IMG/VR virus record: IMGVR_UViG_3300025889_000096
Source: an uncultured virus (IMG/VR IMGVR_UViG_3300025889_000096)
Taxonomy: Duplodnaviria; Heunggongvirae; Uroviricota; Caudoviricetes
Length of the DNA stretch: 20,000 nucleotides
Direction: 5' to 3' (one strand)
Part shown: positions 66 through 16,066 of the stretch, piece by piece
How the letters are laid out: the number at the start of each line of letters is the position of its first letter
Position numbering within the stretch: position 1 is the first letter of the stretch
Notes under the pieces: model-generated
The model's input: the letters and a program-made list of their open reading frames with translations, nothing else
Database searches by the model: none
Told to the model about the DNA's origin: nothing
Program-made: the position numbers and the translations under genes

Positions 66-284
66 TCAGTTAATGATTTTGTACTGCAGAGATTTGATAC
101 ACCAACCAGTGTTATTTGTGATTACATCTGCGAGACAATCTTCTCCATCAGGTGAATCCCACAGACAGTTTTTAGTCTCTTGAATGATCTCATCTTGCTC
201 TTCTTGAGTGAGATCTTCATAGTCGAAATCAAACTCAATATCAGTTACTTTGTAGTATTTCATGGTGGTTTCAGTGTTAGTCAT
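66..284 (-). CDS. small acidic hypothetical phage protein
   Basis: 72 aa ORF; ATG supplied by repeat R1; in-frame second Met at codon 8. Confidence 0.8.
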   Translation of the reverse strand: MTNTETTMKYYKVTDIEFDFDYEDLTQEEQDEIIQETKNCLWDSPDGEDCLADVITNNTGWCIKSLQYKIIN

Positions 285-319
285 ACTACTAGGACACTTT
301 GGAGGTGAGTAACTTTAAT
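282..319 (-). repeat. 38-bp element R1 (consensus copy)
   Basis: catactactaggacactttggaggtgagtaactttaat; contains TAA of 315..581 and ATG of 66..284. Confidence 0.98.
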
Positions 320-581
320 TCACACGAAAATAAGTGCCGTTCGCTTTATTCAGTGTGATAAGTTTCTCTTGAATGTCATTCAGTCCCTCTTCATCAAGTT
401 CATCAACTGCTTCACATTCAGTCCAATCATCTAACCGAACCGCACCAGATTCACTGATGGGAGTATAGTACAGTGTGCCTTCATCATCAATCGAGTAAGC
501 ACAACCGTGACCTTCACAAGTGTAGATAATCATCTCGGTGGTTTCAGTCATTTTTGCTGTAGGATTGGGGAGGGAAATCAT
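315..581 (-). CDS. acidic hypothetical phage protein
   Basis: 88 aa ORF; stop inside R1; ATGA overlap with upstream ORF. Confidence 0.8.
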   Translation of the reverse strand: MISLPNPTAKMTETTEMIIYTCEGHGCAYSIDDEGTLYYTPISESGAVRLDDWTECEAVDELDEEGLNDIQEKLITLNKANGTYFRVN

Positions 582-799
582 TGAACAATAGTATTCACAT
601 TGGGGTCAAAAGTAACCTCAGTGATGACATCAAAATCTTCAGTCATCTTGACATAATTCCAGAGAGTGTCAGTCTCATCCTCCACATTTTCTTGATAAAG
701 GTGAATGAAACCGTCACTGTCTTGTTTTACATAGCAACCATCATAATTCTCATCATCAAAGACATAACCAGCGGCAATCAGTGCGTCAGTGAAAGTCAT
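578..799 (-). CDS. acidic hypothetical phage protein
   Basis: 73 aa ORF with 4-nt overlaps at both ends. Confidence 0.8.
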   Translation of the reverse strand: MTFTDALIAAGYVFDDENYDGCYVKQDSDGFIHLYQENVEDETDTLWNYVKMTEDFDVITEVTFDPNVNTIVQ

Positions 800-936
800 T
801 TTGCGTTGCAGTAGTTAGGGTTTGCTTGGCAGAACAATTCTGCCTGTTGTTCTTGATACTCATTGGTGCTTGCATGTGCAATCAAACCAACGCGAAGTCC
901 TAGTGCTAGAGTAGCAATTAGAAAAGCAATTCGCAT
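796..936 (-). CDS. 46 aa protein with signal-peptide/TM-like N-terminus (MRIAFLIATLALGLRVGLIAHAS...FCQANPNYCNAK)
   Basis: read manually, below the ORF-track cutoff; fills the gap exactly with stop/start overlaps. Confidence 0.7.
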   Translation of the reverse strand: MRIAFLIATLALGLRVGLIAHASTNEYQEQQAELFCQANPNYCNAK

Positions 937-1106
937 CAGACTTCATCCTGCATTTCGGAGAGTTTGTTATAGAGTGCATCGACATCTGTGCCGACAAGTT
1001 CATTCAATTCTTGTGCAGATTCTTCATCAACGAATGAATCTGTGTGAAACTCGATGAACTTGAGAAGTGCATCAATCTCCTCAAAAGTGAGAGTGGTTTG
1101 TGTCAT
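936..1106 (-). CDS. 56 aa acidic hypothetical protein (MTQTTLTFEEIDALL...)
   Basis: read manually; TGATG coupling to the next gene. Confidence 0.7.
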   Translation of the reverse strand: MTQTTLTFEEIDALLKFIEFHTDSFVDEESAQELNELVGTDVDALYNKLSEMQDEV

Positions 1107-1108
1107 AA

Positions 1109-1279
1109 TCAGTCAACAACAGAGTAACAAGCAACCCAGGAAGGAATCCCGCCTAGTTGTAAAGAACCGTTGCGGGAATCACAATAGTCTTGGGCATCAT
1201 CTTCGGAGTAGAAAGGTCCAATATACTCAGGAGAATTGAGAGAATTGGAATCGAATCGGACGGTGAAGGTGTTAATCAT
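1109..1279 (-). CDS. 56 aa hypothetical protein (MINTFTVRFDSN...)
   Basis: read manually; its only Met is the ATG in repeat R2. Confidence 0.7.
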   Translation of the reverse strand: MINTFTVRFDSNSLNSPEYIGPFYSEDDAQDYCDSRNGSLQLGGIPSWVACYSVVD

Positions 1280-1314
1280 ACTACTAGGACACTTTGGAGG
1301 TGAGTAACTTTAAT
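1277..1314 (-). repeat. 38-bp element R2 (identical to R1)
   Basis: exact copy; contains TAA of 1310..1501 and ATG of 1109..1279. Confidence 0.98.
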
Positions 1315-1501
1315 CCCAGATAACTTGTGCCTCCTTGATGTTAGAATCAAAGAACTTTTGAAAGATAGAATCAATCACAGGATACCATTCTTCGTTAGCA
1401 CTGGGATACCCACATTCTCGTGCTTGATTGAGAAACTTAAGGATGCAAGTTTCCTCATTAGCAGTGAACTCAACACGATTGAAAGTGTAACCGTCAGTCA
1501 T
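1310..1501 (-). CDS. hypothetical protein
   Basis: 63 aa ORF; stop inside R2. Confidence 0.75.
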   Translation of the reverse strand: MTDGYTFNRVEFTANEETCILKFLNQARECGYPSANEEWYPVIDSIFQKFFDSNIKEAQVIWD

Positions 1502-1673
1502 AATAAGTGTTAGTGTTTCCGTAGTTTAGATAATACCAGAACAAGTTTCTCATTCTTTCTCCATTAGGATATCCATCAAGATGGTTCCACATATGATTTC
1601 TCCAAGAATACACACAATACTCAAAGAGATGAATAGAAGTCCAGATATTCCATTTCTTCCAGGTGTCAGTCAT
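1494..1673 (-). CDS. 59 aa Trp/Tyr-rich hypothetical protein (MTDTWKKWNIW...)
   Basis: read manually; 8-nt overlaps with both neighbours. Confidence 0.65.
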   Translation of the reverse strand: MTDTWKKWNIWTSIHLFEYCVYSWRNHMWNHLDGYPNGERMRNLFWYYLNYGNTNTYYD

Positions 1674-1977
1674 TTGCCTCCAGTTTACCGATAAGAGTTT
1701 TCAATTCAGCAATCGTGTTACGGTTCCACAGGTTACGATTTCGTTTCACAGCAATAGTGTACTCGTCTTCTGGGTCATCATACCACAGTTTGTTCTGCCA
1801 TTCCTCATCAAGAGTAGGATCCAAACACTCAAGATCACCAAGAAGTTCAAAGATTTCATCGGCAATAAGTTCTTCATCAATTTTATTCATTATCGATTGC
1901 TTGACTTGAAGATGATTTCTTCGAAGAACATCATAAAGATGACGGAGTTCTTCTCTGGTAAATGTGATTTCAATCAT
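1666..1977 (-). CDS. hypothetical protein
   Basis: 103 aa ORF, coupled to neighbours. Confidence 0.75.
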   Translation of the reverse strand: MIEITFTREELRHLYDVLRRNHLQVKQSIMNKIDEELIADEIFELLGDLECLDPTLDEEWQNKLWYDDPEDEYTIAVKRNRNLWNRNTIAELKTLIGKLEAND

Positions 1978-2228
1978 TTTAGTTCCTCTTCAATCCTTTC
2001 AATCTCAAAGACTTCGTTTAGAAACTCCAAACCATACTTACCAACAACCCAAGCATCTTTATCCTCAAAGAACCTATTACCTATGGTTCTCATATCGTAT
2101 CCCTCTTTGTTTTTATCAAAGAAAGCAACGACACAACAAGTTTCACCATGAGTTTGAGGATACCACTTGACAAGTTCATACTTGTTGTTACATTTGCTCC
2201 AACGGAACTCTATGTTACGGAACCTCAT
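1974..2228 (-). CDS. hypothetical phage protein
   Basis: 84 aa ORF with ATGA overlap. Confidence 0.75.
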   Translation of the reverse strand: MRFRNIEFRWSKCNNKYELVKWYPQTHGETCCVVAFFDKNKEGYDMRTIGNRFFEDKDAWVVGKYGLEFLNEVFEIERIEEELK

Positions 2229-2317
2229 TCTTCTACTCCATATTCAGTGGTAATACTATCAATCACATAATCTCCGCAAGCAATCAGAAGATTAGCAGTT
2301 ACCAACAAACTTCATAA

Positions 2318-2566
2318 TCAGTAGTGTGCCTCAGAGGTGTCAAGAACTTCGCTGTACTTAGCGATACCATCATAGCAACGCTTTGCCATTTCAGAGTCAC
2401 CGTCAGCGATGTAACCTTTCAGAAACTCAAAGCAGTATTTGATACGCTGCTCAGGAGTAACTTTAGCGAGTTGTTGTTGCTTACGCTCGTAAGCGGCGTT
2501 GTAGGCAAACATCTCACGATCTTCGAGGGAGATGTTGTGAAACTTGCGGTTGGTAGTGTTGCTCAT
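2318..2566 (-). CDS. hypothetical protein
   Basis: 82 aa ORF; ATG supplied by R3. Confidence 0.75.
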   Translation of the reverse strand: MSNTTNRKFHNISLEDREMFAYNAAYERKQQQLAKVTPEQRIKYCFEFLKGYIADGDSEMAKRCYDGIAKYSEVLDTSEAHY

Positions 2567-2601
2567 ACTACTGGGACACTTTGGAGGTGAGTAACTTTAA
2601 T
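2564..2601 (-). repeat. 38-bp element R3 (1 mismatch)
   Basis: catactactgggacactttggaggtgagtaactttaat; contains TAA of 2597..2908 and ATG of 2318..2566. Confidence 0.98.
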
Positions 2602-2908
2602 CCTGCGAACCATACCAGACAAGAAACCCAAGGATTGCAGCGGCAGGCACAACAATCCACCAGTATTCTACAATCAACCAAATACCAAACAGAATTGCAC
2701 CTAGGATAAGATAACCACTAACATCACCACCAGAAGATGAATATGAACCACCAGATCTTACCTTTCTCAAGTTGATAATCTGTTCTGCTCCATAGATTCT
2801 CTCAAACTGCTCTTTTGCACCATTAAGTGTGTTGGATTGAACTTCCAGTTCTTGATAACCAGAGGAAGAACCTAACCAACACTTTGCACGATAAGTTGCC
2901 ATTACCAA
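2597..2908 (-). CDS. membrane protein (soluble N-terminus, Gly/Ser linker, two C-terminal hydrophobic helices)
   Basis: YLILGAILFGIWLIV and WWIVVPAAAILGFLVWY; stop inside R3; real start probably 2902. Confidence 0.8.
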   Translation of the reverse strand: MVMATYRAKCWLGSSSGYQELEVQSNTLNGAKEQFERIYGAEQIINLRKVRSGGSYSSSGGDVSGYLILGAILFGIWLIVEYWWIVVPAAAILGFLVWYGSQD

Positions 2909-3165
2909 GTTCCTCTTTGGATGTGGATTTTGCGAATCTCCTGATAAAGGAACTGACGAAGTTTAGGTTCGGTAGTGTTATCAAAAGCATAATAAAGACG
3001 ATTCAAATACTCATCTTGTGTCGCACATTTGACGACTTCAGCATCAGTCACACCAAGTTCATTGAGTGTAGAACCTGCCTTAACTTTTGGTTTGCCCCAA
3101 TTTCCAGTTATGCGACCTTCAGTACGAAGTTTGGGACGAATCTTTGAGAGGTTAGAGTAAGTCAT
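2902..3165 (-). CDS. basic hypothetical phage protein
   Basis: 87 aa ORF, coupled. Confidence 0.8.
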   Translation of the reverse strand: MTYSNLSKIRPKLRTEGRITGNWGKPKVKAGSTLNELGVTDAEVVKCATQDEYLNRLYYAFDNTTEPKLRQFLYQEIRKIHIQRGTW

Positions 3166-3401
3166 CGTGCTACAATGTCAAGAGTTTCCAACAGCATCAT
3201 AGAAAGTTCCATCTGGTTCTCATCATCAACCACAGGAATGTTCGTCTCTACAAACTCACTAATCAGTTGGGCAAAGAGTTCAGTTGTGCGTTCATCTGCG
3301 AATAGAGCAGTGGCAAGTTCATTCTTGAACCCATCACGCAGAAGTTTGAGAGACTTTGTGACAGTCAGTTCGTTGATAGTTTCAGTCATTGTGTTGCTCA
3401 T
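3162..3401 (-). CDS. acidic hypothetical protein
   Basis: 79 aa ORF with ATGA overlaps. Confidence 0.8.
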   Translation of the reverse strand: MSNTMTETINELTVTKSLKLLRDGFKNELATALFADERTTELFAQLISEFVETNIPVVDDENQMELSMMLLETLDIVAR

Positions 3402-3832
3402 TTTGCGTACAAATATGAACCGCTCCAGTCTGCGTTCTCCAGCAGATACTCACGATCTTGAATCAATCGCAGGTCATAACGAACACCTTTGGCAGGAGAT
3501 TTCCAACTGGAACTCTTGTAGATTTCACCAGTGTTCTTATCAATGAAGCAGTGAACAGAACGATGTCCACCACCATCAACAAAGATGACTTTGTGATACT
3601 TTTTACCAGTTTCTACTTGATAATCAATGTCACACTTGCCAGACTTGAGTTCATCAATCTTCTGCTGATGATACCCAGGAGTTGCATCAAATCGCTCAAC
3701 AGAACGCTGATGCCCACGAATAGAATACTGGCGATAGTTGTCTTTCAGTGCTTCAATCAGCAGCAGAGTGTTCTTATACACGTTCTCTGCGATAGTTTGT
3801 TGCGCTTGTGCTTGCATTGTGGTTGTGATCAT
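3398..3832 (-). CDS. conserved hypothetical phage protein (KKYHKV...SVHCFIDKNTGEIYK..SWKSPAKGVRY type)
   Basis: 144 aa; motif pattern recalled from T4-like cyanophage hypotheticals; ATG supplied by R4. Confidence 0.85.
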   Translation of the reverse strand: MITTTMQAQAQQTIAENVYKNTLLLIEALKDNYRQYSIRGHQRSVERFDATPGYHQQKIDELKSGKCDIDYQVETGKKYHKVIFVDGGGHRSVHCFIDKNTGEIYKSSSWKSPAKGVRYDLRLIQDREYLLENADWSGSYLYAK

Positions 3833-3867
3833 ACTACTAGGACACTTTGGAGGTGAGTAACTTTAAT
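3830..3867 (-). repeat. 38-bp element R4 (identical to R1)
   Basis: exact copy; TGA of 3867..4787 overlaps its first base. Confidence 0.98.
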
Positions 3868-4787
3868 CAACTCCAATTCTTGGGCAGAACGAAGTTGTTG
3901 TGAGAGAATACTTCGCGGTCAATGACTTTGAAAGACCCAAACTTGTTGTGAATGACGAAACCTTCGTGGAAGGAATCTTCACCATTGATAGAACACTCAA
4001 TGTTGTCCAGTTCGTGAATAAACAGGAACAAATCTTCTTTGATAGACTTCACCAACTTCCACAAACGCAGCAGGTTGATGTCACAATCACATTTTTCTGC
4101 GATTTCATTTTCACAGATGACCCGTTGCTCCCTGATGCAGGAGTTAATCTCTTTTTTGATTTCTGATGCCTTGCGGTCAGTCACAAACTCACATAGAGTG
4201 CTCATTTGCTTGGCAAACTTACACACATCCTCCAAATCTTCACGATAAGGATTCAGTTCAACCTCAGGTTGAACAAACAGAACAGTCTTGGTGCTCGCAA
4301 ACTTGCTGGTGATAGGGTGTGCTATCATCTCTGGCAGTTTATCACCAGTGTAGTAAGTGTGAGGACAAATGATAATCTCCTGACGCACAATCTCAGGGAA
4401 CCTGTAGGTAATGGTGTTGGGTTTGAATGTATCCAACCCTTTACCAAAACCAATCCAATCTCCCTGATACACTCGTTTAGTGCGAGGCAAAAACTCCAGG
4501 CAATAGATGAGGATTTGGGTTACGCGAGGTTGTCCACCAAAGTGCGTAAAAATGTCATCTTCGGTGTAGCAAAGGCGAATCTTTTTCTTGTTAAATGCTG
4601 CTTTCGTGCAGACAAAAAACTTACCATTCTCAGGATTTGTACCCCAAACAATAGCAGGAGCACCATCCATCTTGACACTGATGGTAGATTCTACCTCGTG
4701 AAACCAATCCAGAACCGACAGATTGCCCGTCAGAATCTCATCTTCAGGATGCTCTAGGTGCTTGTTTTGCATTGGTTGCCTTGTCAT
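3867..4787 (-). CDS. ATP-dependent ligase/nucleotidyltransferase-fold protein (DUF6267-like)
   Basis: HLEHPED, motif I-like KMDG, motif IV-like EGFVI, motif V-like FKVID; ATG supplied by R5. Confidence 0.7.
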   Translation of the reverse strand: MTRQPMQNKHLEHPEDEILTGNLSVLDWFHEVESTISVKMDGAPAIVWGTNPENGKFFVCTKAAFNKKKIRLCYTEDDIFTHFGGQPRVTQILIYCLEFLPRTKRVYQGDWIGFGKGLDTFKPNTITYRFPEIVRQEIIICPHTYYTGDKLPEMIAHPITSKFASTKTVLFVQPEVELNPYREDLEDVCKFAKQMSTLCEFVTDRKASEIKKEINSCIREQRVICENEIAEKCDCDINLLRLWKLVKSIKEDLFLFIHELDNIECSINGEDSFHEGFVIHNKFGSFKVIDREVFSHNNFVLPKNWS

Positions 4788-4822
4788 ACTACTAGGACAC
4801 TTTGGAGGTGAGTAACTTTAAT
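4785..4822 (-). repeat. 38-bp element R5 (identical to R1)
   Basis: exact copy; preceded on the minus strand by an intrinsic terminator. Confidence 0.98.
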
Positions 4823-4828
4823 TGCGAC

Positions 4829-4854
4829 AAAAAAAGAGAGGGATAAACCCTCTC
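4829..4854 (-). terminator. rho-independent terminator
   Basis: minus strand GAGAGGG-TTTAT-CCCTCTC followed by T7, just after the stop of 4859..5149. Confidence 0.9.
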
Positions 4855-4858
4855 ACAT

Positions 4859-5149
4859 TCACTCAACAACTTGATCGTAAGAGTTTTTGACTTTATCAAC
4901 CAGTGCAGTGCGTTGTTCAGCAGTCAGTAGATTGTTGCGGGTGAAGTTAATAAATGCCACAAGTCCAATGAGTTGAAGAACACCATTGAACACGGGGATT
5001 GCATCAACAACTGCAACAACTTCGTGAATAAGAAGTTGTGAAACAATCACGACAAACAGAATAGCAGTTGTGAGACCAACATTCTTGAGAAGTTCGTTAG
5101 AAACATTCTCATTCACGAAGTTCTTAACCTGTGCGATTTTCTCTTGCAT
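4859..5149 (-). CDS. CAAD-domain (CurT/CURVATURE THYLAKOID1-like) membrane protein
   Basis: two hydrophobic helices and the pattern VVDAIPVFNGVLQLIGL...NLLTAEQRTAL, matching the CAAD consensus (ID.iPll..llel.G....L....R..l). Confidence 0.75.
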   Translation of the reverse strand: MQEKIAQVKNFVNENVSNELLKNVGLTTAILFVVIVSQLLIHEVVAVVDAIPVFNGVLQLIGLVAFINFTRNNLLTAEQRTALVDKVKNSYDQVVE

Positions 5150-5163
5150 TTGTGATAGATTGT

Positions 5164-5178
5164 GGAGCGGTGCGCTCC
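5164..5178 (-). promoter_or_regulatory. GC-rich 5'-leader hairpin just downstream of R6
   Basis: GGAGCG-CAC-CGCTCC, perfect 6-bp stem. Confidence 0.6.
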
Positions 5179-5179
5179 T

Positions 5180-5217
5180 TACATTACTGGGACACTTTGG
5201 AGGTGAGTAACTTTAAT
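5180..5217 (-). repeat. 38-bp element R6 (variant ending CAGTAATGTA)
   Basis: tacattactgggacactttggaggtgagtaactttaat; contains TAA of the MTase gene. Confidence 0.97.
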
Positions 5218-6106
5218 TCATTGAAGATATGATAGGATTTGCCTCATCTTCCACGATTACAGTTTCTTCACATCGCTTCGTGGCAATGTCAACATAATGC
5301 TGAGACAAATCAATACCAACAAAATCCCGCCCAAGACAATGTGCTGCTACACCAGTGCTACCACTACCACAAAAAGGATCGAGAACAGTAGAACCAACTG
5401 GAGAATAGACTTTAATCAGATATGCCATCAAATCCACGGGTTTGACTGTAGGATGATCGTTGTCAGTTCCCTTCTCTTTGCGTGTGGCACGAGGAGCATA
5501 GAAATACTTTTGATGTTCTGAGTGTACCTCACCGATAATGTTGGAAGGATAGCGACCAGCAGGATTTGCGTCTACTGTACCATACTCTTTGCCACTACCA
5601 GTTGTATTACCATCTCGACCAAATGTACGACGCTTGGTACCTTGGGCAACCCAACCTTTAGGAGGTTTCTTGTCCCAAGGTACGCGGGTGTTCTCTGTAT
5701 CAATGAGACCACATCCCCACTCTTCAAAGTTACTTTGAAGAGATCCCTTGTATGGTTTTTGTGCCACTACAATGGGTTCGTGTGCTGGTTTCAACCGATT
5801 AAACTTCGGCATTTTGGTTGTAGTCATCCACATAATCTGGTCTTTGATTGTGAACCCAGCATCCTCAACATTACATGCCAGACGATGATACAATTCTGGG
5901 GAACAGAAAGCAAGACAAAAGGCACCTGGGCGAAGAGTACGAAACACCTCACGCCAAATGTCTACACTAGGAACAGAATGATCCCAATGATCCATACCCA
6001 TTCCATAAGGAGGATCACTTATACATGAATGGAAAGTATTATCATCATGAGTGGATAGAATCTCTTGACAATCTCCAGTTAGAACTTGATAATCATTGGA
6101 ACTCAT
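5213..6106 (-). CDS. DNA amino-methyltransferase (N6-adenine or N4-cytosine), beta class
   Basis: catalytic DPPY near the N-terminus; HPTVKP and SAM-binding VLDPFCGSGSTG near the C-terminus. Confidence 0.93.
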   Translation of the reverse strand: MSSNDYQVLTGDCQEILSTHDDNTFHSCISDPPYGMGMDHWDHSVPSVDIWREVFRTLRPGAFCLAFCSPELYHRLACNVEDAGFTIKDQIMWMTTTKMPKFNRLKPAHEPIVVAQKPYKGSLQSNFEEWGCGLIDTENTRVPWDKKPPKGWVAQGTKRRTFGRDGNTTGSGKEYGTVDANPAGRYPSNIIGEVHSEHQKYFYAPRATRKEKGTDNDHPTVKPVDLMAYLIKVYSPVGSTVLDPFCGSGSTGVAAHCLGRDFVGIDLSQHYVDIATKRCEETVIVEDEANPIISSMN

Positions 6107-7960: not shown

Positions 7961-7969
7961 TTGAAAGGT

Positions 7970-8007
7970 TACATTACTACAACACTTTAGAGGTGAGTAA
8001 CTTTAAT
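7970..8007 (-). repeat. 38-bp element R7 (variant)
   Basis: tacattactacaacactttagaggtgagtaactttaat; contains TAA of 8003..8191. Confidence 0.95.
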
Positions 8008-8191
8008 TTACAGGAAGTTTGCCCAGTGACTTACCCTTTTTGTGGTCATCTATGAACTTCCTGGCTGATGCTTCTGTCCTACACACTTTGAGTTGCTCTC
8101 CGTTGTGAATGACCATCAGTTGATTGCCAAATGGAATCGCAGCGTAGTTACCTTTGCCGATAATAAATCCTTCTTTCATTACACTTTCCAA
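8003..8191 (-). CDS. small hypothetical phage protein
   Basis: 62 aa ORF (probable start at MKEGFII); stop inside R7. Confidence 0.75.
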   Translation of the reverse strand: MESVMKEGFIIGKGNYAAIPFGNQLMVIHNGEQLKVCRTEASARKFIDDHKKGKSLGKLPVN

Positions 8192-8296: not shown

Positions 8297-9538
8297 TCAC
8301 CTGCGAACGGTGGAGATGGCAGGTTCGCCCTTTTCAAAGATCGTATCAACCACAGACTGAACACTGCGGGCAGTGGCAATACCAACCTTGCTGTAGACAG
8401 GGATACACACAAGACCGAACGATTTGCTATACTGACTCAGGTTGCCAGGTTCAATACGTCCATCGCGCATACCTTTGGCATCATCGTGATGCAGGCGGAT
8501 GCAACGTCCGATGGTCTGACTGATGCCAATGAAGTCCATATTGCGAAGGAAAAGTACCGCTTCCAGACCGCTGACGTTGATACCTTCTGCGAGGATGGAG
8601 TGGTGAAGAACAACGAACTTCTTATCGTTATCCTTACCCCATGCGCTCAGAGTGTCAAAGAACACCTCACGATTGACCTTCTTGCCATCAATAACTGCGC
8701 CAGTCTTGGCAGTAATATACATCCAAGAATAACCGCGACATTCCAACTGGAAGCAGAAGTCAGTTTCAGTCACCAGCGATACGATTTGCTTGGTTGCCTT
8801 AGCACAAATCAGGATCTTGCCAACCTTGTTGTCATCAATGGTTTCCAGCAGATTCTCCGAATCGCGGTCAAAGTTAGTCTGCTTGCCAGTCACCATAGCA
8901 AGTTGCTTGACGATGACTTTGGGGGGCACAATGTAACCACCCTCAACCAACTCAGGAGCAGGAACTTTACAGATGACTTGACCATACACAGCAGCATCAT
9001 TCATCCCAGGTTTGCCTACAGCAAGGGAATGTTTGGGAGTTGCGGTGAAGAAATAGCAGCGACGTGCATTAGCAGCAAAGTGCTCAGTTGCAGGGAAAAA
9101 GTGACGCTGAACGCTGTTATGTGCCTCATCAAAGTAGATGGTATCCACATCAATCTCTGCCACCTGAAGACGCGACAGGGAATTGTAGGTGGTTACAATC
9201 AGGCGATGATTGTCAGCATTAGCATCAACCCAGTTGCGAATCTCTTGAGGGCGAGTAGAGGATTCCCAGTGAACTTCTCCAGAGTGACAATGAAATACTT
9301 TCGCATTGGTAATAAACTCCAGAAACTCAGAACACAACTGAGTCGCCAAAAGAATACGAGGAGCAACAACAACAATAGTCTGGGGAGTTTCAGACTGCAA
9401 CTCACGCAGAGCATCGTAAATCATCTTCAGAGTCTTGCCACCACCAGTAGGAACAATAATCTGACCTTTATCATGCTGTTGCATAGCAGCAACACCGCGT
9501 TCTTGATGAGGGCGAAGTTGGATTTGCATTGGAATCAT
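8297..9538 (-). CDS. superfamily 2 DEAH-box helicase (ResIII-like)
   Basis: Q motif LRPHQ, Walker A PTGGGKT, DEAH, TATP, LAEGIN, QTIGRCIR. Confidence 0.92.
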   Translation of the reverse strand: MIPMQIQLRPHQERGVAAMQQHDKGQIIVPTGGGKTLKMIYDALRELQSETPQTIVVVAPRILLATQLCSEFLEFITNAKVFHCHSGEVHWESSTRPQEIRNWVDANADNHRLIVTTYNSLSRLQVAEIDVDTIYFDEAHNSVQRHFFPATEHFAANARRCYFFTATPKHSLAVGKPGMNDAAVYGQVICKVPAPELVEGGYIVPPKVIVKQLAMVTGKQTNFDRDSENLLETIDDNKVGKILICAKATKQIVSLVTETDFCFQLECRGYSWMYITAKTGAVIDGKKVNREVFFDTLSAWGKDNDKKFVVLHHSILAEGINVSGLEAVLFLRNMDFIGISQTIGRCIRLHHDDAKGMRDGRIEPGNLSQYSKSFGLVCIPVYSKVGIATARSVQSVVDTIFEKGEPAISTVRR

Positions 9539-9540
9539 TA

Positions 9541-9578
9541 TCTAGTATTAGGACACTTTAGAGGTGAGTAACTTTAAT
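9541..9578 (-). repeat. 38-bp element R8 (variant)
   Basis: tctagtattaggacactttagaggtgagtaactttaat; contains TAA of 9574..9771. Confidence 0.95.
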
Positions 9579-9771
9579 TCGCCTTATTATAGAACTTCAG
9601 TTTATCAATCACACCTTGCATTGTAGCACGATTGTATCCATTCGCAAAGGATAGACTTCTCTCAGTCTCGGGATTAGGACCAAAATCAACATTTTGAGAG
9701 ACATTAACACCCTCTTGGAGAAGGCGAATAACATCATCAAAGACAAAATCGGGGATTTGAATGTAATTCAT
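9574..9771 (-). CDS. hypothetical protein
   Basis: 65 aa ORF; stop inside R8. Confidence 0.75.
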   Translation of the reverse strand: MNYIQIPDFVFDDVIRLLQEGVNVSQNVDFGPNPETERSLSFANGYNRATMQGVIDKLKFYNKAN

Positions 9772-9834: not shown

Positions 9835-9845
9835 CTGGTGGTTAA

Positions 9846-10004: not shown

Positions 10005-10027
10005 AGTGTTGTTTTGAGTGTTGTCCT

Positions 10028-10065
10028 TATACTACTAGGACACTTTGGAGGTGAGTAACTTTAAT
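10028..10065 (-). repeat. 38-bp element R9 (1 mismatch, ATG changed to ATA)
   Basis: tatactactaggacactttggaggtgagtaactttaat. Confidence 0.98.
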
Positions 10066-10070
10066 TGGAC

Positions 10071-10748
10071 TCAACTTCCTGATGCTTGTGCTGCTGCTTT
10101 TGCTTTTGCTCTCATACGAACAGCAACAGCACGACTCCACTCTCCACCACCTGCTTCATATTCTCTACGCATTTGTGCAAGAATCTCACTAGAAGATTTC
10201 TTAGTCTTTTGTGCTGCTGCTGTTTTCTCTTTATTTCTTGCTCTATCTCTCTCTTGACGTGTCATTCCACCGCCACCTTCATGCTCCCACTTTCTGCGTG
10301 GTTTTGCTGCTGGTTTCTTCTCTTGCTGTGGTTTTGCTTGAGAGATTGCTTGTGATGCAGTCTTTGGTTGTGTTTTACCACCTTCTCTTGCTTTACGCTC
10401 AAGGTATGCTTTACGCTGCCTTTCTTTAGCAGTCATAGCAGCACTTCCTTGAGTTCCTGCAGTTCCAGGTTTTAATTCTGTTGCACCCGCTCCTCTTCCA
10501 GGTGCGGGTGCTGATGAACCTCTTTGTTGACCTTTATCTTTGCGTGTTTTATAGGAAACTGGTTCAGTCTTACCACCACCAACTGCTTTCACTCTACGTC
10601 TTTCGGGAGCAGACTTTTTGCGCTGTTTACCTATTCTACCACCTTCACCAGTGCGGGTGATGGAAGCACCACCACCCCAACCAAGTTGTTGTGCAGCATC
10701 AGCATCAGATTTTTCACAAAGAATCATAAACTCCTGAAAGGTTCTCAT
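10071..10748 (-). CDS. basic low-complexity protein with capsid-targeting-like N-terminus (putative internal head protein)
   Basis: MRTFQEFMILCE resembles the T4 internal-protein targeting sequence MKTYQEFIAE; K/R/A/G-rich body; late promoter upstream. Confidence 0.65.
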   Translation of the reverse strand: MRTFQEFMILCEKSDADAAQQLGWGGGASITRTGEGGRIGKQRKKSAPERRRVKAVGGGKTEPVSYKTRKDKGQQRGSSAPAPGRGAGATELKPGTAGTQGSAAMTAKERQRKAYLERKAREGGKTQPKTASQAISQAKPQQEKKPAAKPRRKWEHEGGGGMTRQERDRARNKEKTAAAQKTKKSSSEILAQMRREYEAGGGEWSRAVAVRMRAKAKAAAQASGS

Positions 10749-10973: not shown

Positions 10974-10977
10974 TTGT

Positions 10978-11172
10978 TCAGGATACAGTAGAATCAGAGT
11001 CAGTAGGGAGTTCAGTGTTTACTTTACTAGGTTTCACACGCACATTGTAAGGACTATTGAAGAACCTGCGGAAAGCAGTAACAACAATAAAAAGCGTTGA
11101 AAGTACACCAATAAAACCAAGGATGGTGACAGCATCACCGCTGAAGTTAAGAGTGTCAAGAGTCATAATCAA
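10978..11172 (-). CDS. small single-TM membrane protein
   Basis: AVTILGFIGVLSTLFIVVTAF followed by RR. Confidence 0.75.
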   Translation of the reverse strand: MIMTLDTLNFSGDAVTILGFIGVLSTLFIVVTAFRRFFNSPYNVRVKPSKVNTELPTDSDSTVS

Positions 11173-11303
11173 TAATCAATGTTAGAGTTAAGATACTCAT
11201 TCATATTGAAGTCATTTCGTTCTTCAATCAGTTCGGAAATGTCTTCCTCAATGAAATCAAAGTTTTGGAGTTCTTCAATTTGAATGTCATCAAACCAGTC
11301 CAT
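11169..11303 (-). CDS. 44 aa very acidic protein (MDWFDDIQIEELQNFDFIEED...)
   Basis: read manually; first gene after R10. Confidence 0.7.
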   Translation of the reverse strand: MDWFDDIQIEELQNFDFIEEDISELIEERNDFNMNEYLNSNIDY

Positions 11304-11318
11304 AACTTGTTTGCTGCT

Positions 11319-11356
11319 TACATTATTAGAACACTTTGGAGGTGAGTAACTTTAAT
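11319..11356 (-). repeat. 38-bp element R10 (variant)
   Basis: tacattattagaacactttggaggtgagtaactttaat; TGA of 11357..11605 directly abuts it. Confidence 0.96.
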
Positions 11357-11605
11357 TCAACTAATCTTTTTAACTGATTTTGCTAACTTCTTCAGTCTTT
11401 TCGTTACTTCTTTCCCACCACTACGCTTTACAACTAACTTATCAACTTCTTTCTTTGTTGGTTTACCCATTGGCCCTTCATAACGCTGAAGGGTATAAGT
11501 TTGAGTTCCATCAGCATCTCTCCTATAAGTTCCAGGAACTGCATGTGGTGGAGTATCTGGTTTCTTACCTTCACAGATTTGATAGAACTCCCTGAATGTT
11601 AGCAT
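11357..11605 (-). CDS. basic protein with capsid-targeting-like N-terminus
   Basis: MLTFREFYQICE N-terminus; K-rich. Confidence 0.7.
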   Translation of the reverse strand: MLTFREFYQICEGKKPDTPPHAVPGTYRRDADGTQTYTLQRYEGPMGKPTKKEVDKLVVKRSGGKEVTKRLKKLAKSVKKIS

Positions 11606-11611
11606 TTTTTA

Positions 11612-12322: not shown

Positions 12323-12341
12323 TTTATGAATACTTTTTAGA

Positions 12342-12348
12342 TATTTAT
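12342..12348 (-). promoter_or_regulatory. T4-type late promoter (ATAAATA)
   Basis: 7/8 match to TATAAATA, intergenic. Confidence 0.7.
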
Positions 12349-12350
12349 GT

Positions 12351-12617
12351 TCACTCAAACTCAAGCGTCTTATTTGAGTATTTGACTGGTGGAGTTTGAT
12401 AATCAGACAACATAGACCCATCAATCACAACATGTATAGTTGTTTTATCATTCCAATGTCTAATTGCATTTGCTACAATGAAACAGTTGGTGATAAAAAT
12501 AGACAAAAACATCACAAGGCGGATAAGAGCAATCCTATCCGCCTCTTTATCAGTTTTTCCTGCTTTTTCACCCAACGATTTAGCTAGCAATCGCCAAAAG
12601 GTTTTCCTTTTCTTCAT
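12351..12617 (-). CDS. hypothetical membrane protein
   Basis: FWRLLAKSLGEKAG..D.EAD.IALIR followed by one TM segment. Confidence 0.75.
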   Translation of the reverse strand: MKKRKTFWRLLAKSLGEKAGKTDKEADRIALIRLVMFLSIFITNCFIVANAIRHWNDKTTIHVVIDGSMLSDYQTPPVKYSNKTLEFE

Positions 12618-12855
12618 AGATTGACGTGCGTGACTGAATGTATTCTAATTGATTCCACTGATTATGATAACAAATCACAAGCAATCTTTCATTTCTGTGA
12701 ATAGGGCAACATTCAAGGTTGATTTCATCTTTGGGACGAACATTGTGCTCAATAGTGATATATTTATCACACTTGAAGTACACCCAACCTTCTACACCTT
12801 TTCCATTCTCCCATACCACATAATCGTTGATGCTTGGAGTATAGTTATTGTCCAT
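12580..12855 (-). CDS. hypothetical phage protein
   Basis: 91 aa ORF. Confidence 0.75.
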   Translation of the reverse strand: MDNNYTPSINDYVVWENGKGVEGWVYFKCDKYITIEHNVRPKDEINLECCPIHRNERLLVICYHNQWNQLEYIQSRTSIYEEKENLLAIAS

Positions 12856-12860
12856 AATAT

Positions 12861-13568
12861 TTAATACAATTTTATTCTACCAAGAACCCATTGGTTGCCT
12901 GGACATTCTATACTCCTTTTGTTTATTTGTCCATTATTCCACCACTTTGTATTTTTATTTGAAGGTGGTTTATGTTCCATCATTTTAAGTGTTTCACTTA
13001 CTTTTTTCTTATGTTCTTCACTGCATTTTTTACCTTTGTTATGGGCGGGTTTCCCTTTCAGTGCCTTACTAATGTTTTTTTTATGTTCTTCTTTTAATTT
13101 TATTCCAAGTTTTTTTTCACTCATTTTTCTTTTGGCATCTTCACTCATTATTTTTCCTTTTTTTGCTTTTCGCATTTTTAGTATAGTTTCTTCACTATAC
13201 ACTCTACCCTTTATTGAAGACCCAATTCTTCTTTTTGTTTCTTCGCTAAGTTTTTTGCCTTTATGAGATTCGCTTAATTTTCTTCTAGTTTCTAAACTTT
13301 TGATAGCACCACTAGACCCCTCACCACCATTAGTCCTATTTCTCAATATTCCAGTTCCTAAATCTTTTCTACCAAGAACTGCTATTAGATAAGTTTCGTG
13401 CTTAAATGCTTCTTCTTCAGTTAAGTTCTTCTTAAGGAATATTATTTTTGTTTTATCTTTCGGTGGTTTTATTTGACCCTTTCCTTTATAAAATGCCCTA
13501 TTACCTTCTCCTTTACCAATGTAGTAAGGAGTTTTATCTTCTCTTAAATATGCGTAAGTGTAATACAT
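12861..13568 (-). CDS. free-standing GIY-YIG-like homing endonuclease with NUMOD3 repeats
   Basis: YTYAY...YYIGKG..R, conserved E and [10 protein letters not shown]; tandem (H/K)KGKK.SEE(T/H)K.KIS repeats; AT-rich. Confidence 0.85.
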
Positions 13569-13658
13569 TTGTGCCTTGGCGAGACATATCTATTTATTAT
13601 AGCAATAATGAAGGGGACTTACACAACTAAAATCCGCCAAGACACAAGTTGATGCCCC
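13569..13658 (-). promoter_or_regulatory. structured leader of the homing endonuclease, with an internal late promoter (ATAAATA, 13591-13597)
   Basis: 13-bp pairing of 13635-13647 with 13569-13581 (one G-U); second pairing of 13654-13658 with 13613-13618. Confidence 0.7.
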
Positions 13659-13662
13659 AAAC

Positions 13663-13944
13663 CTAAAAAAATGCTGCCTCCAGCGGTGTCAACTTCAATG
13701 GCATTGCTGTATAGTTCCGCGTGTCCCGAATATTTACACAAGCACCGATGGTCTTACTATTGACTGGGGCATAGTATTCTCTGGTTTTGGATTTGTAAAA
13801 TCCCCAAATAGTTCTGGTCGAAGTGCCATTGTTGTAGTCAAACTTGCGATGACAGCGTAACCAAATAGAAACCACGCCACGTTTGTACTCCTCAAACTCA
13901 TAACTATAACCTTCTGGTGCTTTATGTGGAAATTCAGCAATCAT
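13663..13944 (-). CDS. conserved hypothetical phage protein (MIAEFPHKAPEGYSY...)
   Basis: ORF-track 13663..13956; internal ATG at 13944 preferred. Confidence 0.8.
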   Translation of the reverse strand: MIAEFPHKAPEGYSYEFEEYKRGVVSIWLRCHRKFDYNNGTSTRTIWGFYKSKTREYYAPVNSKTIGACVNIRDTRNYTAMPLKLTPLEAAFF

Positions 13945-14101
13945 ATTCACGTTCAATAGACAAAAGAGTAATCAGTGTTTTTAGTTTAGCAATCTCTTGC
14001 TCTTGTTCGCTGATTTTATTCTGAAGACGACTGATTTGTGCTTGGTATTGCTGTTTCAAATCAAACAGCATCTTGTCCATATGGGCAACTTGATGTGTCA
14101 T
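13934..14101 (-). CDS. 55 aa coiled-coil protein (MTHQVAHMDKMLFDLKQQ...)
   Basis: read manually; heptad-like Q/E/K/L pattern. Confidence 0.65.
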   Translation of the reverse strand: MTHQVAHMDKMLFDLKQQYQAQISRLQNKISEQEQEIAKLKTLITLLSIEREYDC

Positions 14102-14103
14102 AA

Positions 14104-14343
14104 TCAGGTGGTAAATGATTCAACAATAACAGATTCTACATCTTCAGCAAGAGTATATCGTGGTGCTTTGATTACATTCTCACGAAGTTTTCCAAAACAA
14201 TCTTCATAACCTTCATACTCATAATGATTAGAAATCAAGTTAAAACATTCATCATCATTTTCGGCAATCACATTCCAAAGTCCTCCGTATTCCGAACTAG
14301 GAAATCCGATTGCGTGGTCCACAACATAAAAATACTTTGCCAT
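14104..14343 (-). CDS. hypothetical phage protein
   Basis: 79 aa ORF (PSSEYGGLWNVIA). Confidence 0.8.
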   Translation of the reverse strand: MAKYFYVVDHAIGFPSSEYGGLWNVIAENDDECFNLISNHYEYEGYEDCFGKLRENVIKAPRYTLAEDVESVIVESFTT

Positions 14344-14366
14344 TTGTTTGTGTAAATTACTCCTTC

Positions 14367-14395
14367 AGTTTAACGAAAATCAGTGTTATTGTCAA
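14367..14395 (-). promoter_or_regulatory. sigma70-type promoter
   Basis: TTGACA-17 nt-TAAACT, 23 nt upstream of ATG 14343. Confidence 0.8.
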
Positions 14396-14468
14396 TGTCA
14401 CCAGCAAGGATAAGAGCGACACCAATAGTTGCTAACACACCAAGACCAAATCCAGCAATAAAAATCAT
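14370..14468 (-). CDS. 32 aa single-TM peptide (MIFIAGFGLGVLATIGVALILAG...)
   Basis: read manually; TGATG coupling. Confidence 0.6.
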   Translation of the reverse strand: MIFIAGFGLGVLATIGVALILAGDIDNNTDFR

Positions 14469-14605
14469 CAGTAAAACTCTGCAAGATAATAGTCAACAGT
14501 CACTTCTTTTTCTGCTGCAAGTCGCTCAATTTCTTTCCAGAAGTCCTGAGCAATCTTTTCACGTTCAGCGTTCATAATCAGGTCTTTAATGCGTTGCGGA
14601 ATCAT
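14468..14605 (-). CDS. 45 aa hypothetical protein (...EIERLAAEKEVTVDYYLAEFY)
   Basis: read manually; coupled on both sides. Confidence 0.7.
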   Translation of the reverse strand: MIPQRIKDLIMNAEREKIAQDFWKEIERLAAEKEVTVDYYLAEFY

Positions 14606-14715
14606 TTGAATTGCTCCTCATCTTTAGGACGAATAACCCTGAAATAATATACCACAAGTGATGTCACCATGGCAATTATTGCGGTGTAGATAGAAATTGC
14701 GAGTGCTATACTCAT
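14602..14715 (-). CDS. 37 aa single-TM peptide
   Basis: read manually; MSIALAISIYTAIIAMVTSLVVYYF; ATGA overlaps. Confidence 0.6.
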   Translation of the reverse strand: MSIALAISIYTAIIAMVTSLVVYYFRVIRPKDEEQFK

Positions 14716-14870
14716 CGGATTTCTTTACTTGGAGGTTTCTTAAGATTCTCTATTGCTTGTTGGTGATAGTAAGCATCAAACATCCTATCATCACGTTGGA
14801 TTAGAAAGACATTCCAACCAAGAATGGCAGCAAAACCAATCAATCCAGCGACAATGTACTTTTTGTTCAT
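14712..14870 (-). CDS. 52 aa single-TM protein (MNKKYIVAGLIGFAAILGWNVFL...)
   Basis: read manually; ATGA overlaps. Confidence 0.7.
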   Translation of the reverse strand: MNKKYIVAGLIGFAAILGWNVFLIQRDDRMFDAYYHQQAIENLKKPPSKEIR

Positions 14871-15286
14871 TTTTTAACAGTAGGTGCTTGTTGAATATCA
14901 AAAGTAGGTACAGGAGCACCACCATTACTGGGCACCATATAAACAGTACGATTGGTGTTTTCCTCACCTTGAGTAATCCACAGATACTGAAGATAAGCAG
15001 GATTACCTTTCAAACTATCACCGATGATTTGGTTTGCTTGTGCAACACCACGAGCACGAATCACCTCTGCTTCAGCAAGTTGTTGTGCTGAGTCTTTCTT
15101 TGCTTGTGCTTCCAGAACTGCTACCTGACGAGTGTATTCTGCCTTCTGCAGTTCTGCTTTACCAGCAAGAGATTGCTGCCACACATTATACTGTGGACCA
15201 CCAATAAAGAGGAGACCACCAATCACAACAGCACCACCAATAAACAGAATAATAGCAGGGTCAATATATCCGTTTTGTTTAGTCAT
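14867..15286 (-). CDS. membrane-anchored coiled-coil protein, SPFH/band-7 C-terminal-like
   Basis: N-terminal TM; Ala/Glu/Gln-rich coil (AEAEVIRARGVAQANQII); YLQYLWI. Confidence 0.65.
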   Translation of the reverse strand: MTKQNGYIDPAIILFIGGAVVIGGLLFIGGPQYNVWQQSLAGKAELQKAEYTRQVAVLEAQAKKDSAQQLAEAEVIRARGVAQANQIIGDSLKGNPAYLQYLWITQGEENTNRTVYMVPSNGGAPVPTFDIQQAPTVKK

Positions 15287-15405
15287 TTGTCACCTTCAAT
15301 AGTAGATTTAAGCAGTTCATTCATTGTGCGACGAGCACGATAGTTTTGGATAATGTCCATTACACAATACCCAAAGGCAAATCCTGCCATAATTGTAGTA
15401 ATCAC
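15283..15405 (-). CDS. 40 aa hydrophobic peptide (GTG start)
   Basis: read manually; GTGA and ATGA overlaps. Confidence 0.6.
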   Translation of the reverse strand: MITTIMAGFAFGYCVMDIIQNYRARRTMNELLKSTIEGDK

Positions 15406-15593
15406 TTGGAAGAACCTCCAGTGGGTTTGAAAATAAGATTAGCAAGAAGCACAATAGCAAAATTTTGCCAGATGGTCAAAGAGACATTGAACCAAGACAA
15501 AATCAGTCCAAGAAGTGCTGCTTCAAAAAATAGAGCAGCAACAGCAAGAACAATCACACCAAAAGTGAGACCAAGAGCAGTAGAAGTTTTCAT
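15402..15593 (-). CDS. two-TM small membrane protein
   Basis: 63 aa, largely hydrophobic. Confidence 0.75.
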   Translation of the reverse strand: MKTSTALGLTFGVIVLAVAALFFEAALLGLILSWFNVSLTIWQNFAIVLLANLIFKPTGGSSK

Positions 15594-15596
15594 AAA

Positions 15597-16016
15597 TCAG
15601 ACGTGAAGGGCAGCAGAAGGAATTTCAACGACTTCGGGATATTTGTTCCCAAACTCATTACGATTATAGCACACCCACTCACCGTTCAGAGTGTAGAGAT
15701 ATGCGTACTCTTCACCATCAGCAAGATAATCATACTTGTTAGAATCAAACCGAGGAGGAGAATCTTCACCACGATAAGAGTAATAGTTGGGACCATATTC
15801 TTCCCTATGACGGTCTAGCAAATCATTAGACCAACGTTCGTTAGTCCAGCAGGAACTCATATCCCCACCATCAATCAGTTCAGAAACTTTCTCTTTGGTG
15901 TTGTAGTGAGTGTTGAGAATACGACCCAACCATTCAGGATAACCGTCCCAGTGATGATAGGCAGAAAGAATACTGCCATCAGCGAGTTCAATACCGATTC
16001 GGGAGCGGGTTGCCAT
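15597..16016 (-). CDS. conserved hypothetical phage protein (MATRSRIG...YHHWDGYP...EEYAYLY family)
   Basis: 139 aa; first gene after R11. Confidence 0.85.
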   Translation of the reverse strand: MATRSRIGIELADGSILSAYHHWDGYPEWLGRILNTHYNTKEKVSELIDGGDMSSCWTNERWSNDLLDRHREEYGPNYYSYRGEDSPPRFDSNKYDYLADGEEYAYLYTLNGEWVCYNRNEFGNKYPEVVEIPSAALHV

Positions 16017-16028
16017 TTGTTCGTTGCT

Positions 16029-16066
16029 TACATTACTAGGACACTTTCAAGGTGAGTAACTTTAAT
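16029..16066 (-). repeat. 38-bp element R11 (variant)
   Basis: tacattactaggacactttcaaggtgagtaactttaat. Confidence 0.95.

Follow-up and report, generated by a model that had tools for sequence, protein, structure and literature searches.

The window, as we call the whole 20,000-nucleotide stretch analyzed here, comes from a T4-like Synechococcus cyanomyovirus. All of its credible genes lie on the minus strand, so the repeated element described below is read as its reverse complement, ATTAAAGTTACTCACCT-CC-AAAGTGT-CCTAGTAGTATGA. A scan of the whole window for the 17-mer AGGTGAGTAACTTTAAT gave exactly 11 matches, all on the plus strand, starting at 303, 1298, 2585, 3851, 4806, 5201, 7991, 9562, 10049, 11340 and 16050. 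No further site was detected in the window at up to 2 mismatches, and shuffling yielded a mean of 0.01 sites, with 0 of 200 shuffles reaching 11. The initial annotation had reported 11 copies of 38 nt, each beginning 21 nt before a 17-mer start, and both its 11 coordinates and its copy spacings agreed with our scan. The same was true of the 17-mer and the 7-mer (ACACTTT; complement AAAGTGT) lying 2 nt apart in 11/11 copies, of the identity of copies 1, 2, 4 and 5 over 38 nt (copy 3 is one base off), and of the lack of any copy in 16.1-20 kb. All 11 copies were co-oriented with the genes and intergenic, filling the gaps between gene groups. Positions within the element follow the coding (minus) strand, and the first A of ATTAAAG is position 0. 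The copies and the adjoining features are as follows.

278..320, minus strand: element copy 1, class A; its ATG (284-282) opens a 72-aa ORF (66-284)
1273..1315, minus strand: element copy 2, class A; its internal TAA ends the ORF 1310-1501
2560..2602, minus strand: element copy 3, class A, with a single base change (C at position 28)
3826..3868, minus strand: element copy 4, class A; heads the DUF7717 gene (3398-3832)
4781..4823, minus strand: element copy 5, class A; heads the DUF6267 gene (3867-4787)
4836-4854, minus strand: intrinsic-terminator-like hairpin with a T-run, after the CAAD gene and 13 nt upstream of copy 5
5176..5218, minus strand: element copy 6, class B (TAATGTAAG), without a usable ATG; heads the lone CAAD-domain gene (4859-5149)
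7966..8008, minus strand: element copy 7, class B; heads a 2.8-kb module (7937-5213)
9537..9579, minus strand: element copy 8, whose 3' half (CCTAATACTAGATAATG) diverges most; heads the helicase gene (8297-9538)
10024..10066, minus strand: element copy 9, class B (TAGTATAAG)
11315..11357, minus strand: element copy 10, class B; start codon at position 53
16025..16067, minus strand: element copy 11, the first to be reached by transcription
16068..20000, minus strand: element-free upstream block with small ORFs

The ATG of copy 2, at 1279, opens the ORF 1109-1279, and a second ATG is absent nearby. The module headed by copy 7 contains a 177-aa ORF, a 419-aa ORF and an N6/N4 DNA methyltransferase, and copy 11 stands at the head of about 14 ORFs spanning 4.7 kb. 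The single gene originally called CurT-like encodes a CAAD-domain protein. The one called ligase-fold is presumably the DUF6267 gene; its ligase label is putative, and comparison with solved structures gave no sequence match. Copy 5 was the only one of the 11 with a terminator hairpin just upstream. On the coding strand of the element-free block, two near-consensus sigma-70-type matches (11/12 each) were found at 19335-19308 and 17545-17516. Many gene junctions in the same arrays carry no element, and there stop and start merely overlap. The earlier assignment of the window to a phage early or accessory region was borne out.

To describe the element beyond the window, we compared 303 distinct instances. 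The conserved span was about 43 nt (-1 to +41). It is preceded and opened by an A/T tract, with AAnTT at about -12 to -8 followed by aATTAAAG, which occupies the UP-element location; in most instances the upstream gene's stop codon lies in this tract or directly next to it. Even inside unrelated upstream coding ends, the AA/TT bases at -12 to -8 remained weakly conserved. The invariant box TTACTCACC sits at the location of a -35 hexamer and does not match TTGACA. In 16 genomes, the distance from CTCACC to TAGT was invariant, forming a rigid spacer, and T31, A32 and T36 of the near-invariant TAGTRT (31-36), which fits the -10 pattern TAnnnT, were each about 90% conserved. An A/C-rich, G-poor stretch follows on the 3' side. 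A second TAnnnT-like hexamer lies at 2-7 (A3 94% and T7 100% conserved). Positions 23-30, a lineage-private part of the rigid spacer, were almost fixed per genome and differed between genomes (Fst 0.58-0.97), and positions 17-18 varied freely within genomes (Fst 0.13-0.27). The element holds no Shine-Dalgarno sequence. Its description as having no stem-loop of its own was also correct: the 11 copies had fold z-scores between -1.83 and +1.35 and shared no structure.

We then examined the stop and start codons at the element. The upstream ORF ended at the TAA of the element in 108/294 instances, at -3 to -1 in 79/294 and within 30 nt in 82/294, so that the stop lay in the element or no more than 3 nt away in 187/294. 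The stops of the element cover three frames (TAA at 2, TAG at 28 and 31, TGA at 36). An ATG at 35-37 was present in 139 of 301 instances, and in 131 of these 139 it was open for at least 40 codons, opening the downstream gene. The remaining instances had their start codon at 50-58, and GTG at 35-37 was rare (5/301). Among ATGs at positions 38-80, 96 were in frame vs 6 out of frame. In at least 53 of the 131 class A genes, a second in-frame ATG at 44-62 was missing. The use of the element's ATG as a start codon, and the fixation of positions 23-30 within genomes together with their difference between genomes, are new details.

We carried out the scan of related contigs proposed in the initial annotation. 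The element was abundant and conserved in genomes and metagenomes: the exact 17-mer occurred in at least 240 viral-contig stretches from about 115 contigs, a 20-mer of the 3' half occurred in at least 161 metagenome stretches, and variant copies were found in two isolates. Contig G001 matches the window at 100% identity across 10,185 nt and has 4 extra copies past window base 1, showing that the array runs on beyond that end. A complete relative with terminal repeats (G002, 222,563 bp) carried 15 copies on one strand at 45.5-60.9 kb and none elsewhere. The isolate SynMITS9220M01 had 12 variant copies at 36.3-50.0 kb, just before purM and baseplate genes, and the isolate S-B05 had 11 variant copies at the same location. 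In each case the copies formed one co-oriented cluster in an early or hyperplastic region. The motif was absent from Syn9 and S-PM2, with Syn9 at control level.

The initial annotation took the repeat for an expression signal at the head of gene groups, and this it almost certainly is, by sequence and position a candidate promoter. Our preferred reading, to which we give a probability of roughly 0.6, is that the repeat is a lineage-specific version of a multicopy, promoter-type control element for the early genes of T4-like cyanophages. We infer promoter activity, start site and early timing from sequence and position, and the early timing in particular is suggested by where the genes lie and by analogy with Syn9. 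Host RNA polymerase, possibly aided by a factor reading the private box, would start near 41-44. Since terminators are almost absent, transcripts from every upstream copy would read through the later copies. On such read-through RNA the element would act as a translation junction, its three-frame stops ending upstream reading and its ATG at 35-37, in about half of the copies, serving as the start codon of the next gene or adding a short in-frame N-terminal extension. A start near 41-44 would leave this ATG outside the element's own transcript, so its use in translation would need read-through RNA; the class A genes that lack a second in-frame ATG could not rely on their own promoter. A search of G002 for a single-subunit RNA polymerase (PF00940) gave no match, although control genomes were equally silent and detection of the family is undemonstrated. 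Against the promoter reading, a sigma-70 consensus scan (at least 9/12 matches) called none of the 11 copies, and the -35-like TTACTC agrees with TTGACA at 2 of 6 positions.

The hexamer at 2-7 could also be a -10 box. TAAAGT would then direct a transcription start near 13-14, and the invariant block with its ATG at 35-37 would form a 5' leader with an RNA-level role in translation start, in stability or in being targeted by a regulator or a small RNA. Within the 5' part, conservation in all lineages is highest at A3 and T7, ribosomes clearly use the ATG at 35-37 (most copies with this ATG open a gene there, out-of-frame ATGs are nearly absent and GTG is scarce), and the resulting leaders, about 21 nt in class A and about 39 nt in class B, would have ordinary lengths. 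However, the stretch at -21 to -16, which would then occupy the -35 location, showed no conservation, and T31, A32 and T36 remained about 90% conserved in copies lacking the ATG, as a -10 box would be. The AAnTT and ATTAAAG tracts stand at UP-element positions for the downstream start only, and the supposed leader has no common structure and matched no Rfam family. We consider the leader explanation unlikely.

Less likely still, and in our view very doubtful, is a purely RNA-level role in which the element is no promoter and marks intercistronic junctions in long early transcripts from upstream sigma-70-like promoters, with translation stopped in three frames and restarted at the fixed ATG or an A/C-rich site. 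The three-frame stops, the upstream ORFs ending at or just before the element, the built-in ATG in use and the near-consensus sigma-70 matches upstream of the array (19335 and 17545) all suit such a role. A junction signal, however, would require no lineage-private box and no invariant 17-base block 20-35 nt upstream of the ATG, and many junctions in the same arrays do without the element. Start codons lie at two distances (35 or 50-58), and the layout is that of promoter modules at canonical spacings.

Within the promoter reading, the element may be read by a lineage-specific candidate factor, encoded by the phage or delivered with the virion, that would redirect the host RNA polymerase as a cyanophage counterpart of the T4 MotA/AsiA system. 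This proposal is tentative, and we would sooner expect it to fail than to hold. The fixation of positions 23-30 within genomes and their divergence between genomes, with positions 17-18 variable, is better explained by selection through a private reader than by gene conversion of the whole element. If such a reader exists, the element would be a portable expression junction, offering stops in all three frames plus an in-frame ATG and its short leader, at which foreign ORFs could be captured and expressed at once.

The initial annotation went further and proposed a gene-cassette platform, in which the repeat serves as expression signal and as recombination boundary alike. In its full form, the repeat would be a promoter and the main such boundary, and homologous exchange between copies would account for most gain, loss and reordering of accessory genes, as for PeSLs (promoter-early stem-loops), possibly through excised circles. 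The copies do share about 40 nt of identity on which recombination could act, and some slots between two copies hold different cargo in different relatives. The element-bounded slot that separates the DUF6267 gene from the helicase module carries the methyltransferase module and the CAAD gene here and other sets or nothing in relatives. The methyltransferase family occurred in three different slots, always as the last gene before an element. The right neighbor was kept across the element in 112/381 cases (29%) vs 326/807 (40%) elsewhere (Fisher P = 0.0002; per-family P = 0.04). Homology blocks starting at an element (38/117) made up 41% of junction-type starts, and elements are 26% of junctions, a 1.6-fold enrichment. 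Copies of one genome were also more alike (0.862) than same-locus copies across genomes (0.794).

Other results weighed against the platform. Backbone gene order, whose conservation had been named as an argument against it, was the same in all 15 non-redundant relatives compared, and most breakpoints fell at element-free junctions (481 changed neighbors vs 269 at elements). The predicted enrichment of breakpoints at repeats appeared modestly in neighbor changes and block starts, but block ends were not enriched (20 at elements vs 71 at other junctions), and the test for mosaicism was negative, the identity jump across elements in conserved adjacencies showing no excess (0.080 vs 0.088, one-sided P = 0.88). 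Variable positions 17-18 beside fixed positions 23-30 are unlike the pattern expected from frequent conversion of whole elements. A recombinase travelling with the motif had been anticipated, and none was found in the window: Pfam matches (19 longer ORFs) and PHROG matches (46 ORFs) included no integrase or recombinase. Gene swapping is only mildly tied to the element, and the platform in its full form strikes us as possible but doubtful.

Among known systems, T4 middle promoters combine a MotA box at -30 with a sigma-70 -10 box. The window element likewise pairs a -10-like TAnnnT with a conserved box, other than a -35 hexamer, at about -36 to -28, suggesting that it is read by something other than unmodified sigma region 4. 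The box itself is unrelated in sequence, and its reader here is hypothetical. An integron attC array was considered and rejected, as the copies have no hairpin and the matches to Pfam (19 longer ORFs) and PHROG (46 ORFs) contain no integrase or recombinase. Cyanomyoviruses are described, in the relevant passage of PMC2984593, as lacking alt, modA, modB, motA and asiA, with early and middle control called unclear.

The likeness in role and position to PeSLs noted in the initial annotation was supported. These are elements of the T4-type phages RB49/phi1, T4/PST and KVP40/nt-1, and in the parts of PMC2839356 (Arbiol et al. 2010) and PMC4122927 (Comeau et al. 2014) that describe them they are, as here, multicopy and co-oriented and occupy hyperplastic regions ahead of small ORFan-type genes. 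Some indels or replacements between relatives end at them, as appears to be the case, to a modest degree, for the window element. The layout drawn in PMC2839356 places the upstream stop before the promoter, and the order of a stop in an A/T-rich tract, promoter boxes and a downstream start codon is shared (stops in 187/294; starts at 35 or 50-58). In contrast to PeSLs, the window element showed no stem-loop in the 11 folded copies and a nearby terminator in 1/11, and it lacks a Shine-Dalgarno sequence and near-consensus sigma-70 boxes (-10-like TAGTAT present, 0/11 copies called). Its link to breakpoints is also much weaker.

A further counterpart lies in the cyanophages themselves. The repeat of Syn9 in the syntenic block, as found here, has the 3' half GTGT-N4-TATAAG about 17 nt before the ATG; it may or may not equal the motif of Doron et al., who in 2016 reportedly described a novel regulatory element that drives Syn9 early genes and is conserved in T4-like cyanophages. 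Both systems consist of repeated elements without a sigma-70 consensus before early or accessory gene groups, in Kyanoviridae and in the block preceding the baseplate genes. The likeness to the Syn9 repeat is confined to the layout of the 3' half (GTGT, 4-5 nt, TAnnn(T/G), about 17 nt to the ATG). The two differ in their upstream box (AGGTGGCACA with a hairpin-prone spacer in Syn9, TTACTCACC in the window element) and in copy number (4 vs at least 15 in the window element's lineage), and the window element itself often carries the start codon. Taken together, the repeat is most likely a virus-specific promoter, a signal of about 43 bases placed before every set of small early genes and often supplying the start codon.

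The invariant 17-mer of the element occurred exactly 11 times in the window, all on the plus strand, confirming the number and location of the copies in the initial annotation; no additional site was found in the window at two or fewer mismatches, and the chance expectation was 0.01 matches. R1, R2, R4 and R5 (copies numbered from window base 1) were identical over 38 nt, and 16.1-20 kb was free of the element, both as had been claimed. All credible ORFs lay on the minus strand, on which the element reads ATTAAAGTTACTCACCT-CC-AAAGTGT-CCTAGTAGTATGA and on which positions are numbered below from 0, the first A of ATTAAAG; the element-free block is the upstream side in the direction of transcription. 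Viral contig G001 was 100% identical to the window over 10,185 nt and carried 13 copies with the same spacings. Four of these lie beyond window base 1, so this phage has at least 15 copies.

Megablast of the window against phage records matched 21 records in short pieces only, all of them Synechococcus phages; these belong to the Kyanoviridae and are T4-like cyanomyoviruses. The ORFs were mostly small and of unknown function, and the named matches were as follows:

3398-3832, minus strand, DUF7717
3867-4787, minus strand, DUF6267
4859-5149, minus strand, CAAD-domain protein
5213-6106, minus strand, N6/N4 DNA methyltransferase
8297-9538, minus strand, helicase
12861-13568, minus strand, NUMOD3 homing-endonuclease-like gene

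A 67-aa ORF (17454-17657, minus strand) had weak matches to endonuclease VII, HNH and Lar-like PHROGs. Scans of the window for Rfam families and tRNAs found none, and the element was rejected as a known RNA family or tRNA, as it matched neither.

The element belongs to a widespread family, and the observation is real. The exact 17-mer matched at least 240 IMG/VR contig stretches, on about 115 contigs among the matches listed, and a 20-mer from the 3' half of the element was found in at least 161 metagenome stretches. In G002, a complete relative of 222,563 bp with terminal repeats, 15 copies lay on one strand at 45.5-60.9 kb and nowhere else. Among cultured isolates, SynMITS9220M01 carried 12 variant copies at 36.3-50.0 kb, directly ahead of purM and baseplate genes, and S-B05 had another variant, in 11 copies, at the corresponding place; the motif was absent from S-PM2 and Syn9. 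The syntenic block of Syn9 instead held four copies of a different repeat (L243: 4304-4361, 6573-6630, 9015-9072 and 11011-11068), consisting of AGGTGGCACA, about 25 variable hairpin-prone bases and TCGTGTATTCTATAAGAGTCAAAGG. Between its two conserved boxes lies a G-run/C-run hairpin followed by T's, and two annotated small Syn9 genes (the gp73 start and gp89) overlap it. The literature on PeSL (promoter-early stem-loop) elements and cyanophages, and on SynMITS9220M01 and S-B05, yielded no description of the repeat, and the SynMITS9220M01 genome announcement mentions no promoter, repeat or motif; Doron 2016 and Mann 2005 may already describe it.

Across 303 distinct instances, the conserved span ran from -1 to +41. 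AA at -12/-11 was weakly conserved, as was TT at -9/-8, and the sequence 3' of the element was rich in A/C and poor in G. When 16 genomes were weighted equally, the T at position 7 was conserved at 100%, A3 at 94% and T31, A32 and T36 at about 90%; the invariance of CTCACC and AAA in this comparison is a consequence of the search design. The distance from CTCACC to TAGT was constant in all lineages compared. The upstream ORF stopped at the element's own TAA in 108/294 cases, at -3 to -1 in 79/294, no more than 30 nt away in 82/294 and at a greater distance in 24/294, and read on to the element's later stops in only 1/294. Folding revealed no structure common to the copies, which agrees with the earlier statement that the element has no stem-loop of its own. 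Coding-strand positions 11-18, TCACCTCC, match the 3' end of 16S rRNA, the opposite strand thus being a perfect GGAGGTGA. Anti-Shine-Dalgarno mimicry was rejected, and the match is probably a coincidence, because position 18 varies and the sequence reads CTCT or CTCG in other lineages.

An ATG at positions 35-37 was present in 139/301 instances, and in 131 of these 139 no stop codon followed it for at least 40 codons. In instances lacking this ATG, the first long ORF began at 50-58 (mode 53). Within the ATG class, 78/131 had a further ATG in frame between 44 and 62, most often at 50, and positions 38-80 contained 96 in-frame ATGs vs 6 out of frame. Among homologues of one gene, some were joined straight to the element's ATG and others had a 5-residue in-frame extension, and PHROG profiles started 5-8 residues past this ATG. 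The open frames, in-frame excess, fusions and profile starts indicate that ribosomes use the element's ATG. This bears on gene calling, as many annotated N-termini lie within the element.

On the most likely reading, the element is a lineage-specific form of the early-gene promoter element of cyanophages. Judged from sequence, its modules appear to fit a strong phage early promoter with canonical spacings: UP-like A/T tracts would span roughly -55 to -37, a box covering about -36 to -28 would be followed by an 18-nt spacer, and TAGTRT would occupy -12 to -7 relative to a start predicted near position 41-44. A sigma-70 consensus scan of the window called 0/11 copies, and the -35-like box is non-canonical. 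A rival reading would take positions 2-7 as the -10 box, and the conserved block would then be a 5' leader. Under the promoter reading with TAGTRT as the -10 box, the used ATG would lie upstream of the start, which could be reconciled by read-through RNA, proposed because the copies, about 15, all point the same way and terminators are nearly absent; among the 11 copies, a terminator lay just upstream only of that at 4822. Most RNA over a given gene would then derive from copies farther upstream. A T7-like promoter (ACTCAC core) was rejected, with no single-subunit polymerase in G002 and the control genomes likewise silent. Metagenome contig starts, used as a proxy for transcript ends, showed no pile-up at the element, and the 161 stretches look like ordinary DNA contigs. 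The presumed 'early' timing of element-headed genes rests on position and on analogy with Syn9, in which a novel regulatory element conserved in T4-like cyanophages is reported to drive early genes (Doron et al. 2016). A 2010 review (PMC2984593) gives alt, modA, modB, motA and asiA as missing from cyanomyoviruses and describes the control of early and middle genes as unclear.

Two near-consensus sigma-70-type matches (19335-19308 and 17545-17516, minus strand; TTGACA-16/18-TAAAAT, 11/12 each) were seen in the block that precedes the array and lacks the element, and two different promoter regimes therefore seem to adjoin within the window.

Elements were more similar within a genome (0.862, n = 976) than elements in different genomes that stand before members of one gene family (0.794, n = 383). 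Fst was 0.58-0.97 at positions 23-30 and 0.13-0.27 at positions 17-18. One relative (G005/G024; L247, L259) held two 5'-half types in one array: 9 copies had ATTAAAATAGCTCACCT and 4 had the canonical type. Such a private box, fixed within a genome beside bases that vary freely, points to a reader specific to the lineage more than to conversion of whole elements. Two candidate readers were rejected. A 221-aa protein (16786-17451) with a weak AbrB/MazE-like tail, whose gene sits behind a near-consensus sigma-70 match, was absent from the element carriers SynMITS9220M01 and S-B05. A 225-aa protein (10071-10748, minus strand) was the top outlier among 26 families in the co-variation test; its alignment showed the protein to be mosaic, with no correspondence to element type. 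This protein is very basic, low-complexity, rich in K/R and G and conserved in all relatives, and two unrelated versions of its middle third exist, distributed independently of the remainder.

The initial annotation had proposed a gene-cassette platform in which the repeat is both expression signal and recombination boundary. We compared gene order in the window and 14 non-redundant relatives, excluding the near-duplicates G012, G017, G019, G020 and G024. In favor of the proposal, one slot flanked by two elements, with the helicase module on one side and DUF6267 on the other, held different cargo among relatives, and the right neighbour was kept in 112/381 comparisons across an element vs 326/807 at the remaining junctions (Fisher P = 0.0002; per-family Mann-Whitney P = 0.04), the comparisons in both tests being phylogenetically non-independent. 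Homology blocks started at elements in 38/117 cases and ended there in 20/125, elements making up 11/42 junctions. Against it, backbone gene order was conserved, and the identity-residual jump at conserved adjacencies was 0.080 across elements (n = 112) vs 0.088 (n = 322; one-sided P = 0.88). The methyltransferase family (window 5213-6106; G004, G018 and G022) occupied three different slots, always as the last gene before an element. The NUMOD3 family was found at two other positions in G002, so this gene seems to move by itself, independently of the elements. Integron-like attC sites were rejected, since the copies form no hairpin and no integrase appeared among the window's Pfam matches (19 of the longer ORFs scanned) or PHROG matches (46 ORFs scanned). 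We conclude that the elements are occasional seams and not the main engine of gene turnover, and the gene-cassette proposal has partial support only; the weak and negative recombination results argue against viewing the arrays as integron-like capture platforms.

T4-like cyanophages are among the most abundant viruses of the sea and lakes. The element family occurs very widely and its conservation is extreme, one half being invariant and the other lineage-private. This offers a tangible starting point in the search for a factor that would read the element, and likewise in the prediction of early genes on contigs of uncultured cyanophages. Among known systems, the hairpin and T's make the Syn9 repeat look more PeSL-like than the window element, which is without the defining stem-loop and consensus boxes of PeSL. 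The element is PeSL-like in position, and its parts follow the order in a PeSL figure legend (PMC2839356): an A/T tract with the upstream stop codon, then promoter boxes, then the downstream start codon.
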